Shown in pieces: positions 1-3,994 of a DNA stretch of 5,077 nt. The position numbers were made by a program, and so were the translations under genes. The notes beneath the pieces are model-generated. The model made no database searches and was not told where the DNA came from. It saw nothing but the letters and a program-made list of their open reading frames with translations. Within the stretch, counting starts at the first letter, position 1. Every line of letters begins with the position of its first letter. Source of the stretch: a virus (Duplodnaviria > Heunggongvirae > Uroviricota > Caudoviricetes); IMG/VR virus record IMGVR_UViG_2681813201_000009; one strand, 5' to 3'.

Positions 1-3000
1 TTTTGACAATATCGCCTTCAATCTGGTTGGCTGACAGTTTCCCCTTAATCTGACAGTTCTCATTAATCGTGACGTTGTTGAGCGTCCCTGAGTTCGCATT
101 CACACTGCCACTGATATCCGCATTTTTCGCCGTCAGTCGCCCGTCCGGCGTCAGGGAAAATGCCGGAGGATTGCCGGATGACGTGATACTCACCGCAAAC
201 AGCCGCTTCAGGAACACATCGTTCATGAACAACTGATTCCCCTGCGCCACAAATAACGGCGTGCTGTTGCCGTTCTCCGGATTTATCATCGCGATACGGT
301 CAGCCAGCAGCAGTATGTTGCTCAGTGGCTGGCCATCAGTATCCTCAATCCCTGCACCAATCCCGGCCACATAGGGAATGCCGTCTTTCGTTTTTTGAAC
401 CTTCAGCATGTACAGCGCAGCCAGGTCATCATTTGTGTCCTTCTGCACGCGCTGTATCTGCTGAATGGTGGCGCTCTGGTCTTCCAGCGTTTTACTGACC
501 GTCTGTGTGATTTCATTGCGGGTTTCGGTGATGGAGGTCTTCATCTCCGCCATCTCATCCGCAAGCTGGCTGTTATCTATCAGCTCCCACAGCCCCTGAG
601 CCAGATGCAGTTTTCCTATTTTTTCCCGAAACAGCCCCAGATACCCTTCTGCATCATTGCTGGCCCGTCCACTGGCTTCCACAAAAGCAGATTTACCCAC
701 CAGGTTGACGCTGCGCACATAAAACCAGAAATCCTTTCCGGGCTTAATGTGCGGACCGGAGACACTCCACTGACTGCCGGTCCCCAGATAACGGGCAGAG
801 GTTTCCACCTGTGCGGCGTCTGCAATTTTTGCCTCCGAAAACCAGAACTCAAACTGCACCGTCGGGTCATAAATGGTCAGTTTCGGGACTGCCGTTATCT
901 GAAAATACCCCGGCGTCAGTTCAACACCGGCAGGCGCTGCCGGTGCGTTAATCCGGAACGTGGTGGTGGCGGGTTCGCCCTGCTGGCCATAGCTGTTAAT
1001 CGCCCTGACTGTCAGGGTGTATTCCCCGAGAGGCAGGCCACTGAAACGGTGCTCCGTATCGGCAGTGATGGCGGTGGTCACCAGACGGCTGTCTTCTCCG
1101 CTTCCGCTGGTCAGGCGCAGACTGAAGCGCACACCCTTCACCACCCGCGGCGTGTCCCATTTCGCCTGTGCCAGATACTGACCGTCAGCCGCGCTCACCT
1201 CCACCGTCAGGTGCTGCACAGCCGGCGGGATGACGCTGTTCAGCGAACCGGACAGTGGCTCAAAGCTGGCCCCGTTATCCACAATGGCTTCTTTTTCCGG
1301 TACGTGCTGCACCGCCGTGATGGCAAAGGTGCCGTCCGTGTTTTCCCGGATGGAGACACAGCGGAACAGGCGACGACGCAGTGACGGCAGGGAGAGTCCC
1401 CATACACCGTATGTCTCCACACCATCAGGCAGGGTGCTGACCTGTATCCGGTCCGGCGCGGGGTGTGCGGTGATGTCCACACTCACCGGCTTACCGCTGC
1501 CGTTAATCAGGTTCACCGTGGCGGCACCTGTCTCCGGCAGGGTCACCTCACGGTCCAGCGTCAGGGTGCGGGTGGCAGCATCAATGGACAGGACACGTCC
1601 GCCGGTCAGGGTCCCGGCATAGTCATTATCACAGATTTCAATAATGTCACCGGGTGTGTGCCGCAGCCCCTGAGACCCGAGCGTGAAATCCACCGTCTGC
1701 GTTTCCAGCAGTTCGGTCTTTATCACCCACAGTCCGGCACGGTGGGCCTGACCGCGGCTGGTACAGCCGAACGCGTCCATCTTCAGCAGGTTGCGTCCGT
1801 AGCGCAGTATGGCTTCCGGGTCTTCCACCAGTTCCGTGGAGGTCTGCCAGCCGTTCTGCGGGTCGGTGTAATTCACCTCCACCGCCGTGTGGCGGTCCTT
1901 CAGGGCGCTGAAGCTGTAGCGGAACCCCACGCCGTTATCATCCACCACCACATCGCTGTTGGTGTACGGCAACACCACATCCGACGGACGGTCCTGAACG
2001 AACGTCAGCGTCTGGCCGTTCCATACCGGCATACAGCGCATCGCCGAGCAGAAATCACTGAGAACGTCCCACGCCTTACGCTGTTGTGACAGGTACGCAT
2101 TAAAGGTCATCCGCGGCTCTGTCCCTCCGAAGCCGTCCGGGACACGCTGGTCACAGTACTGCCCGATGGCATACAGCGCCCACTTGTCCACATCCGCGGC
2201 CCCCAGGCGTTTTCCCATGCCGTAGCGCGGGTGAGTCAGCATGTCCCACAGGCACCAGGCCGGGTTGTTGCTGTATGCCGGTTTCAGGCTGCCGTCCCAG
2301 ATGCCGCTGTACGTGCGTTTTTCCGGGTCATAGTTTGACGGTACCTGAATGATGCGACCGCGGATATGGTAGTTCACCGTCATCTGCTGGCCGCCGAACT
2401 GCTCCGCATCCACCTGCAGCCCCACAATGGCCGTGTTCGGGTAGCACTGTTTCACATCGATGATTTCGGTGTATGACGACCAGAGCGTCTTATTCTGCAG
2501 CTGGTCCGTGGTGCTGTCCGCCGTCTCCCTGACCATCCGGATGTTAAAGGGGCGGGGAGGCAGATTATCCAGAATCACCGAAGCGAGGAACTGTGAGGTG
2601 GTCTTGCCGTTAATGGTGACATCCTTTTCCGTCACCCAGTTACCGTTACGCTGCAGCTGAATCAGCAGGCGGACGGATGCCGGGTTACGGTCACCCTGTG
2701 AGGTGGTCTGCACCAGTGACTGCACCCCGAAGGTGACCCGCAGGCGGTCAATGTTCGCGGACGTAATGGTGCGCGTCACCGGCTTTGCCTTCGTCACTTC
2801 CACGCCCAGTGCGGTTTCAGAGCCGGATGACTCAAAACCTTCCGGCGGTGTCTGCTCCTGCTCCCCGGCGCGCCAGACCGCGGTCACACCGTGTATCACG
2901 GGATTGCCGTCCGTGTCCGTCAGTGGGGTTTTGTTCACCAGAATACTCTGCAGCCCCTTCACCGGACCTTCAATCGGCCCTTCACCAATGGCGTCAATCA

Positions 3001-3076
3001 CGCTCATCATCTGCGTGGACTTAAGATTGTCCTTTGCCTCTACCGGCGTGTGCCCCTTGCCGCCCCCTTTACCCAC
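1..3076 (-). CDS. J: Host specificity protein J / central tail fibre (tail tip), N-terminal ~1025 codons; the C-terminal receptor-binding end lies beyond position 1
   Basis: Hand scan of the minus-strand frame (plus-strand triplets starting at positions congruent to 2 mod 3) from 2 to 3076 found no TTA/CTA/TCA, i.e. no in-frame stop. The N-terminus reads (V/M)[37 protein letters not shown]... and the window-edge end reads ...[21 protein letters not shown]; both resemble lambda J as I remember it ([24 protein letters not shown]... and ...ENCTINGTLRAEKIVGDIVK). Start is GTG at 3076..3074, with an in-frame TGA upstream at 3152..3154 and no in-frame ATG between. It is missing from the ORF track because there is no stop inside the window. 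Confidence 0.9.
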
Positions 3077-3080
3077 TCTG

Positions 3081-3092
3081 TCCCCCTCTCCT
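3081..3092 (-). promoter_or_regulatory. Shine-Dalgarno region for J (minus-strand AGGAGAGGGGGA, 4-11 nt upstream of the GTG start)
   Basis: The reverse complement of 3077..3093 is caggagagggggacaga, immediately followed by GTG. Confidence 0.5.
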
Positions 3093-3116
3093 GTCTGATG
3101 TCTGAATCTGTTTATG

Positions 3117-3150
3117 CCAGAAAACAACAGGCACCCCGGAGGGTGCCTGT
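3117..3150 (-). terminator. Candidate rho-independent terminator on the minus strand (10-bp GC-rich stem, 4-nt loop, then U-rich tract)
   Basis: Plus-strand 3127..3136 acaggcaccc and 3141..3150 gggtgcctgt are perfect reverse complements around loop cgga. On the minus-strand RNA the hairpin is followed by UGUUUUCU (plus 3117..3126). It begins 1 nt after the stop of the small ORF (3152..3154). There is no T-tract on the plus side. Confidence 0.45.
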
Positions 3151-3151
3151 G

Positions 3152-3271
3152 TCATGACGGAATAAAATTTCTGAAACTCTTCACATTTCCGGCAATTGCC
3201 TGTAGCCGCAATAATGACGCTGCATTACTTTTTTGATGCCTGAAAAATAACTCCATAACGTTAATCTTCAT
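3152..3271 (-). CDS. Small hypothetical protein, 39 aa (MKINVMELFFRHQKSNAASLLRLQAIAGNVKSFRNFIPS), in an AT-rich I-J insert; moron candidate
   Basis: ATG at 3271..3269 is preceded by GGGAGAG (plus 3276..3282) with a 4-6 nt spacer. 39 sense codons end at TGA 3152..3154, which directly abuts the terminator hairpin. Local GC is about 38% (50/130 counted for 3151..3280) against visibly GC-rich flanking genes. It is below the length cut-off of the supplied ORF track. No homology is recognised; a short ORF in AT-rich DNA can arise by chance. Confidence 0.35.
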   Translation of the reverse strand: MKINVMELFFRHQKSNAASLLRLQAIAGNVKSFRNFIPS

Positions 3272-3279
3272 CGTTCTCT

Positions 3280-3317
3280 CCCGCAGCTCCGCTAACTCTG
3301 CGGGATTTTTTTATTTT
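3280..3317 (+). terminator. Candidate rho-independent terminator on the plus strand (antisense to the late operon)
   Basis: Stem cccgcag (3280..3286) and ctgcggg (3298..3304) flank an 11-nt loop, followed by atttttttatttt (3305..3317). On the minus strand the same hairpin is preceded, not followed, by the A/T run, so it would stop only rightward (plus-sense) transcription. It lies between the I stop and the small-ORF Shine-Dalgarno. Confidence 0.4.
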
Positions 3318-3994
3318 CATCCCCGCCCGATAACCACCACTTTCCCGTCTCCGCCCTCATCACGGGTGCTGATGTCCTGGGATATCCGTCGTGAACCAAC
3401 CAGCATTTCACCATAAGGCACCGGCATCGGGTTCCCCTGGGCAATCATGTTATCCAGTGACGAAAAATACGTGTTCTGTTTACCGTTATCCGTCGCCCTG
3501 TACTCCGGTGTTTTTGCCTTCGGTGCCAGCATCTGGGCCACACCGCCCAGTATCATGCTGGCACCCAGTGAGAACAGCATCGTGGTGGCAGTCAGCCCTC
3601 CGGCACTCAGGGCTGCGCCCCACAACGCCATCGTTGCGCCGGCGGTGAAGAAAGAGCCCACGATGGCTGCTGCCCCCAGCACAATCTGCAGTCCGCCCTT
3701 TCCGGCCCCGGCCAGTCGCGGCACAATATGGATGACCGCCCCCTCACCCAGAGGTTCGTGAAGACGGGCGTACACCGCCTCCGGTGCCGTGTCCTCACCG
3801 CGAATACGTATCTGGTACCAGCCTTCGTTCATCTGACGGCGGAATCCCGGCATCTGCAGCGACAGGGCACGGATGGCTTCCGCTGCCGTGTTCACGTACA
3901 GGCTGAGGCGGCGGCCAAATCGTTGCAAATCCCCGTGAAGGCAGATGCGTGCCAGTGGCGGTGACGCCAGACAGAATGCGTTCGTCGTTGCCAT
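3317..3994 (-). CDS. I: Tail tip assembly protein I (N-terminal ubiquitin-like beta-grasp region, Gly-rich hydrophobic middle, C-terminal domain)
   Basis: ORF track 3317..3994 (-), 225 aa. N-terminus MATTNAFCLASPPLARICLHGDLQRFGRR... and C-terminus ...GEMLVGSRRISQDISTRDEGGDGKVVVIGRG resemble lambda I as I recall it. A GGGAGAGG Shine-Dalgarno (plus 4006..4013) sits 11 nt upstream of the ATG. Stop is TGA at 3317..3319. Confidence 0.9.
   Translation of the reverse strand: MATTNAFCLASPPLARICLHGDLQRFGRRLSLYVNTAAEAIRALSLQMPGFRRQMNEGWYQIRIRGEDTAPEAVYARLHEPLGEGAVIHIVPRLAGAGKGGLQIVLGAAAIVGSFFTAGATMALWGAALSAGGLTATTMLFSLGASMILGGVAQMLAPKAKTPEYRATDNGKQNTYFSSLDNMIAQGNPMPVPYGEMLVGSRRISQDISTRDEGGDGKVVVIGRG

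Follow-up and report, generated by a model that had tools for sequence, protein, structure and literature searches.

The window, by which we mean the whole stretch of 5,077 nt analysed here, carries lambda-like tail genes on its minus strand, with the end of L followed by K, I and J. Its region 3000-3400 agrees in every position with phage VT1-Sakai (100% identity; prophage Sp15 of E. coli O157:H7 Sakai) and shares 98-99.8% identity with several further Stx phages, and a window coordinate is converted to that of the Sakai chromosome (NC_002695.2) by the addition of 2,899,614. The spacer between I and J measures 240 nt in the window, as compared with 60 nt in lambda and 32 nt in Erwinia phage 49. 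In the relatives of the window it ranges from 232 to 853 nt, and its cargo varies. The features of this junction are collected in Table 1.

In VT1-Sakai/Sp15, J is represented by two overlapping CDSs in AP000400 which are annotated as 'truncated protein by a mutation' (window ~1900-2025, minus strand; AP000400 13525-13648), and production of functional tail tips is probably not to be expected from this copy of the gene. Since J is mutated in Sp15, a role in tail expression of the hairpin described below is moot for the Sp15 copy.

Table 1. Features of the junction between genes I and J, in window coordinates
Feature	Coordinates	Strand	Details
Tail assembly gene I	3317..3994	-	Upstream neighbour of the I-J spacer; Pfam Lambda_tail_I, 1.6e-15
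sRNA gene EcOnc22 (PasB family)	3222..3312	+	Runs antisense to the late operon and ends at the T7 run 3306-3312, 4 nt away from the stop codon of I
sRNA terminator	3279..3312	+	Stem TCCCGCAG / CTGCGGGA (3279-3286 / 3298-3305), 11-nt loop, T7 run 3306-3312
sRNA promoter, predicted	3186..3215	+	-35 TTTCCG (3186-3191), 18-nt spacer, -10 AATAAT (3210-3215); weak allele
CRP-box-like palindrome	3170..3185		TGTGA-N6-TCAGA with AAA/TTT flanks; within the most conserved spacer block, 3161-3192
'Small ORF'	3154..3271	-	39 codons and stop; overlaps the sRNA and its promoter in antisense; not a conserved gene
Intrinsic-terminator-like hairpin, late-operon strand	3117..3150	-	Reads ACAGGCACCC-UCCG-GGGUGCCUGU (3150-3127), then UGUUUUCUGG (3126-3117); stem 3150-3141 / 3136-3127, loop UCCG 3140-3137
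Host-specificity gene J	1..3076	-	Start GTG 3076-3074; Shine-Dalgarno GGAGAGGGGGA at ~3090-3080

Structure of the hairpin upstream of J

A preliminary description of this DNA had reported a strong terminator-like hairpin inside the late operon, with a perfect 10-bp GC-rich stem, a tetraloop and a tail on the minus-strand RNA, placed about 40 nt upstream of the J start. All of these features were confirmed in the present study. The inverted-repeat search gave two arms of 10 nt (3127-3136 and 3141-3150) that are 100% complementary and stand 4 nt apart, and seven of the ten pairs are G-C. Among eight terminator-like sites found in the window, where 3.9 would be expected by chance, this one ranked first, and its U tract ends 40 nt before the start GTG of J. 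Folded by itself, the 34-nt hairpin has a free energy of -20.9 kcal/mol (z = -4.6), which was equalled by none of 200 shuffles. In a context of 71 nt the value is -27.5 kcal/mol (z = -4.9), and the stem is retained in both the MFE and the centroid structure of the 281-nt I-to-J transcript, with no sign of instability in that context.

The tail was scored in the manner of TransTermHP. On the minus strand, the U tail UGUUUUCU has six U among its first eight letters and a score of -3.81, which is comparable to what the annotated pre-J terminators reach in phi80 (-4.27) and HK97 (-4.83); the plus-strand reading of the same hairpin is without a U tail (score -2.10, two U). The U tract of the window allele (UUGUUUUCU) is interrupted and weaker than that of most alleles (UUGUUUUU). 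By its structure the hairpin looks like an ordinary intrinsic (Rho-independent) terminator, and termination at this site is predicted from the sequence. The element is unannotated and is of a known terminator class.

Cargo of the I-J spacer

The preliminary description had further proposed that the hairpin ends the transcript of an insert expressed in the lysogen, that is, a minus-strand moron mRNA encoding the 39-aa ORF (3271-3154). A plausible Shine-Dalgarno sequence, GGGAGAG, does stand 6 nt before the ATG of this ORF, its stop codon lies 4 nt before the hairpin, and morons with promoter, gene and terminator are known at the I-J slot, as in the case of MorF of phi80. However, the ORF is not conserved. 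In an alignment of 30 distinct alleles with the short type of spacer, only 14 had the ATG, the ORF measured between 4 and 54 codons, and its reading frame was not constant among the alleles with respect to the invariant promoter block. The Pfam search of the 39 codons gave no family, and no minus-strand promoter was found by a relaxed sigma-70 scan of 3050-3600, in which the sole promoter-like site on either strand was the plus-strand one listed in Table 1. In addition, the ORF is antisense to an experimentally detected sRNA and to the promoter of that sRNA and, as a weak further point, the RIL-seq table of EPEC holds no sense-strand spacer fragment among the matches listed. The view of the spacer cargo as a same-strand small protein expressed in the lysogen is wrong, no forward-strand protein cargo was found for the hairpin to terminate, and we regard it as highly improbable that the hairpin ends an mRNA of this kind. 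What stands from the proposal is a late-strand terminator-like element at the I-J insertion site; a lysogen-expressed minus-strand transcript of the small ORF is not supported.

The known lysogen RNA of the spacer (EcOnc22, or PasB in EPEC) is read from the other strand and ends at a separate terminator (3279-3312). Because the scan of the window against Rfam at E <= 1 gave no match, this sRNA was identified from the literature. Table S2 of Tree et al. (2014, PMC4104026) lists EcOnc22, EcOnc23 and EcOnc24 as plus-strand Hfq-CRAC peaks in prophages Sp15, Sp14 and Sp11, and the same paper describes for EcOnc22 a northern band of ~85 nt which is destabilised without hfq. The three peaks fall into the I-J spacer of their respective prophages at equal relative position. 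In EPEC, PasB is given as an sRNA of 83 nt in prophage PP6 (NC_011601 1466343-1466261, minus strand) in Table S6 of Pearl Mizrahi et al. (2021, PMC8550237), and the tables of that work also hold RIL-seq chimeras of PasB and a log2FC of -6.8 in a DESeq2 table that we have taken as the hfq comparison. PasB sits between I (end 1466255) and J (start 1466496), antisense to both.

Window 3242-3312 has 81% identity with EPEC PasB over 73 nt. The PasB northern probe covers the sRNA terminator and matches the window except in the loop, and the distance from the sRNA 3' end to the I stop is 4 nt in the window versus 6 nt in EPEC. The similarity of terminator and seed, together with the same I-J position and orientation, places the cargo in the PasB/EcOnc22 family. 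As judged from these comparisons, the spacer carries on its plus strand an sRNA gene that has a predicted promoter and a terminator of its own and corresponds to the Hfq-bound EcOnc22. The published RNAs, EcOnc22/23/24 (PMC4104026) and PasB (PMC8550237; Zhu et al. 2026 preprint), share with it the plus strand, the binding to Hfq, a length of ~83-85 nt and an end 4-6 nt from the I stop. They are a feature distinct from the hairpin, on the opposite strand, and no mention of the late-strand hairpin was found in the available portions of Tree 2014, Pearl Mizrahi 2021 and the Zhu 2026 preprint.

The 5' end of the sRNA is predicted at ~3222 from the -10 element, or at ~3236 by homology with the reported 5' end of PasB. 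Towards its 3' end, the second inverted repeat of the spacer runs into T7 when read on the plus strand and therefore forms a plus-strand terminator, of which the stem is invariant across alleles and the loop variable. At the position of the predicted promoter, other alleles have TTCACA-16-TATAAT, a match of 11/12. The insert resembles a moron in that it is I-J DNA beyond that of related phages with adjacent genes. An own promoter and terminator, with expression in the prophage, belong to the plus-strand sRNA (the northern and Hfq-CRAC results in Sakai lysogens are taken from the literature); on the minus strand, which has no promoter there, no unit with its own promoter and terminator was found. 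The single-stranded conserved core of the sRNA (window 3242-3275, plus strand) reads AACUCC..UUAAUCUUCA, with AACUCCUU in most alleles, and is complementary to Shine-Dalgarno-type sequences. The sRNA as a whole is also a perfect complement of the late I-J mRNA and might therefore affect the late transcript in cis, as an antisense RNA.

The centre of the CRP-box-like palindrome lies upstream of the predicted sRNA start by ~44.5 bp, a spacing that departs from the classical -41.5 by 3 bp. The block 3161-3192, within which it lies, is nearly invariant over the 30 alleles and recurs with every sRNA module in tandem arrays. As the palindrome is a single CRP-box match in the window, with 0.26 expected by chance, it is not significant alone. 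PasB is reported to be more abundant in LB than in DMEM, which would be compatible with cAMP-CRP control acting at this candidate site. A CRP-dependent forward promoter that would serve J from the same conserved block was considered and dropped; with class I or class II spacing, transcription would begin within the hairpin or directly behind it, and a usable -10 element is lacking.

The assignment of EcOnc22 to 3222..3312 relies on an offset of +140 nt. Direct conversion of the published peak (2902714-2902774, plus strand) places it at window 3100-3160, over the hairpin, which would make the hairpin part of a plus-strand Hfq-bound RNA. However, the coordinates of Tree 2014 lie ~140 nt below those of NC_002695.2, at least from 1.42 to 2.34 Mb, as calibrated on AgvB (+137 to +146) and Esr41 (+140 to +169), and EcOnc59 passes the filter of that study ('>100 bp from coding regions') only with ~+140, by which it is placed in the cfa leader. 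After the offset, the EcOnc22 peak comes to lie at window 3237-3306 (plus strand), on the PasB-like RNA. An RNA of ~85 nt fits 3222/3236-3312, no plus-strand terminator follows the hairpin, and we give next to no credence to the unshifted placement. Owing to the ~140-nt shift, EcOnc sRNAs that are mapped straight onto the current Sakai record land on the wrong feature. The earlier Sakai record, which we take to have had a length of 5,498,450, would differ by 128 nt from the current one of 5,498,578. The 'Rho Term' column in Table S2 of Tree 2014 was set aside as evidence, AgvB, which has a terminator, being in the blank group.

Variation of the spacer and the hairpin

For comparison of the spacer, 78 I-J junctions were sampled from IMG/VR relatives of I, EPEC and the window, with the spacers extracted by BLAST anchoring. 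A terminator-like hairpin stands before J in 66 of the 78, as two unrelated versions. The most frequent arrangement (class A, 53 junctions, spacer 232-262 nt) consists of the sRNA gene, the promoter block, the window-type hairpin and J. In class C (nine junctions, spacer ~344 nt) the same sRNA and block are followed by an unrelated hairpin, AACCCCGGUAUC-UGCU-GAUACCGGGGUU and UCUGUUU (-21.8 kcal/mol), which is non-homologous to that of the window and occupies the same place before J. Class D (four junctions, spacer 420-714 nt) has two or three tandem sRNA modules with the promoter block in each, and the hairpin once, beside J. Class B (12 junctions, spacer 853 nt) carries an antisense sodC gene (Pfam Sod_Cu, 3.9e-32) in place of the sRNA promoter and is without a forward terminator before J; the hairpin is hence dispensable. 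A scan for the promoter block gave 196 copies, with the window-type hairpin next in 132 and the class-C hairpin in 53. Since the remaining 11 blocks are internal to tandem arrays, the hairpin occurs once per array, adjoining J.

The tandem arrays were seen at L064, L067 and L069 (spacers 420-424 nt) and at L072 (714 nt; 2179-2895), where two or three PasB-like modules lie between I and J. The conserved promoter block and a separate plus-strand terminator are present in each module, and the modules have in common the motif AACTCCTTAA, which is complementary to a Shine-Dalgarno sequence; their bodies are otherwise different. In the sodC class (L070 ~2175-3030, L047 and 10 further loci), the antisense Cu/Zn superoxide dismutase gene has its own terminator and takes the place of both the forward hairpin and the sRNA promoter. 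Downstream of sodC, the 3' portion of the PasB-like sRNA (~100 nt, including the terminator) is still present, and this retained part could therefore arise as a read-through or 3'-UTR-derived RNA.

Over 16 distinct alleles of the window-type hairpin, 98.1% of the stem cells are paired, as against 33-49% when the partner is slid. One pair of the stem shows a compensatory change from C-G to U-A; the change was seen in four alleles, and U-G intermediates also occur. The covariation score was matched by 16 of 500 shuffles for these 16 closely related alleles; the signal is modest because the alleles are close relatives, and for the same reason the conservation could partly reflect recent ancestry. 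The loop is variable (UCCG, UCAG, CACG, CGGUGA), and in the other alleles the U tract is kept or better. Two alleles, L023 and L079, combine the 5' arm of one hairpin variant with the 3' arm of another, which leaves a C.A mismatch in L023 and a U.G pair in L079. Such mixed arms point to homologous recombination, with a crossover within the hairpin loop, between the sRNA-side and the J-side modules.

In complete E. coli genomes, the 61-nt hairpin module was found in 2653 copies in 744 of 5426 genomes (median 3 per genome), and it is without annotation in all matches listed. The species-representative E. coli genome is evidently without the element, and in the species-representative genomes of other taxa a degenerate hairpin pattern gave chance matches in unrelated taxa only. 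Two E. coli matches that span 3080-3188 only (H53 and H55) were considered as cases of a hairpin without the sRNA, and were rejected as ordinary junctions with a divergent sRNA allele.

Possible roles of the hairpin

Hairpins of a similar kind stand at the same slot in other phages. In HK97 (AF069529, 15107-15129), a 'terminator putative' is annotated 12 nt before J, after the moron gp22 and the 'reverse moron' gp23, of which the latter has its own terminator on the other strand. HK97 is like the window in the slot between the tail assembly genes and J, in the use of the late-operon strand, in the distance of a few to 40 nt before J and in the reverse insert with its own terminator upstream. 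It is unlike the window in that there is no sequence similarity and that its inserts are protein genes, where the window has a reverse sRNA gene and no forward gene. As a literature search for 'reverse moron' found no paper, this comparison rests on the GenBank annotation. The rho-independent terminator of the moron MorF is annotated in phi80 (FN582354, 16718-16746) 8 nt before J and, like that of the window, is a strong hairpin with a U run within the late operon, just before J; unlike it, it ends a forward lipoprotein gene (MorF), whereas the window has no forward gene or promoter. In lambda (L234; NC_001416, ~15466-15493), AAACCGCC-UGCG-GGCGGUUU and UGUCAUUU lie in the 60-nt I-J gap, ~20 nt before J, and fold with -15.1 kcal/mol (z = -3.5). 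This hairpin differs from that of the window in its shorter stem, its unrelated sequence and the absence of an insert, and it is without annotation in the record. No terminator-like hairpin was found in the 32-nt I-J gap of Erwinia phage 49.

P22-like phages have an 'ant moron' that includes the antisense RNA sar and precedes the tailspike gene; this insert is thought to affect how often polymerase from the late promoter reaches that gene (PMC2629481). The likeness to the window lies in a variable, independently expressed insert that includes a small antisense RNA just 5' of the gene for a receptor-binding protein; the phage group and the genes are others, and there is no homology. The hairpins before J in the window, HK97, phi80 and lambda are likewise not homologous to one another. 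The annotated pre-J terminators of HK97 and phi80 and the unannotated hairpin of lambda make a forward terminator upstream of J a recurrent feature of the slot.

A moron is an independently expressed insert in a phage late operon, and in the standard model its terminator stops ordinary polymerase and is read through by Q-modified polymerase. In the late transcription of lambda, terminators are read through by polymerase modified by Q. We believe, with somewhat better than even confidence, that the hairpin is an intrinsic late-strand terminator at the J-proximal edge of the I-J slot, at which unmodified polymerase would stop and which Q-modified polymerase would pass. In this phage the slot is occupied by the Hfq-dependent sRNA gene, which is in reverse orientation and has a predicted promoter and a terminator of its own, and polymerase without the Q modification may head from I to J, either by stray read-through across the sRNA gene or by divergent initiation at the A/T-rich sRNA promoter. 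We infer that it would be the transcripts of such polymerase that are terminated in vivo at the hairpin, so that it is kept out of J and of the genes beyond, and that Q would override the stop, the modified polymerase passing the hairpin in lytic growth. By analogy, this logic of stop and read-through fits the terminators annotated just upstream of J in HK97 and phi80.

Some of the same observations may be read in other ways. The hairpin may be without a current function, either as the leftover terminator of an ancestral forward moron or as a conserved linker between exchangeable modules that serves as a homologous-recombination junction, and we hold this to be unlikely. The crossover inside the hairpin in L023 and L079 would be in keeping with it, as would the sodC class without a hairpin and the fact that the hairpin-bearing phages are close relatives. 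It is less easily reconciled with a stem that appears to be maintained by compensatory change while the loop is free to vary, or with the unrelated terminator-like hairpin of class C. The class-C hairpin and the non-homologous ones of lambda, HK97 and phi80 at the same place point to repeated retention or acquisition. Alternatively, since Q-modified polymerase should ignore terminators, the hairpin would exist in lytic growth only as an RNA structure, and it may act mainly on the late mRNA, as a stem that protects either the 3' end of the upstream tail-gene segment or the 5' end of the J segment. The hairpin is indeed highly stable, with -20.9 kcal/mol, and is retained in the long transcript, and the sRNA is fully complementary to the late mRNA at 3222-3312, 70 nt upstream of the hairpin; protection of the J segment would matter if pairing of the two RNAs triggers RNase III cleavage just upstream. 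A conserved U tract right after the stem, on one strand only, is nevertheless the signature of a terminator and needless for a stabiliser, and a main action on the late mRNA seems to us quite unlikely.

Countertranscript attenuation is known from the replication control of pT181 and pIP501. In the window, the antisense sRNA might in the same manner bind the nascent I-J RNA, decide on termination at the hairpin and thereby set the expression of J, and the geometry is suggestive, with an antisense RNA gene, a terminator and a ribosome-binding site each adjoining the next. No conserved antiterminator pairing was found, however; the sole upstream copy of ACAGGCA (3205-3199) is specific to the window allele and absent from the other alleles. 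With late transcription being Q-modified and terminator-resistant, and with lambda having a terminator-like hairpin without any sRNA, such attenuation appears extremely doubtful. A joint gating of J by the late-strand terminator and the reverse sRNA gene, in a dosage-dependent or conditional manner, either via attenuation or via sRNA-guided cleavage of the late mRNA upstream of a J-protecting hairpin and tuned by a CRP-responsive host signal, is very unlikely in our judgement. If it were true, a CRP-responsive signal would tune the production of the tail tip or the leak-through into J and the downstream cargo genes.

Overall, we retain the reading of the hairpin as a late-strand terminator that stops unmodified polymerase, and the main value of the present analysis is the correct annotation of the spacer, of which the antisense strand carries an Hfq sRNA gene known from the literature and the late strand a probable terminator, and which has no small protein gene. 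The I-J spacer is present in ~800 of 5426 complete E. coli genomes, often with 3-9 copies per genome, the matches listed being largely from O157:H7 and other STEC, and it is left blank by PGAP and in the phage records among those examined. The finding holds no surprise for phage specialists. The slot just upstream of J has repeatedly taken up reverse-oriented cargo, in the form of single or tandem PasB-like sRNA genes or of sodC, which mostly has a forward terminator as its border towards J. This rule is useful for the annotation of lambdoid prophages and for sRNA deletions that spare J.
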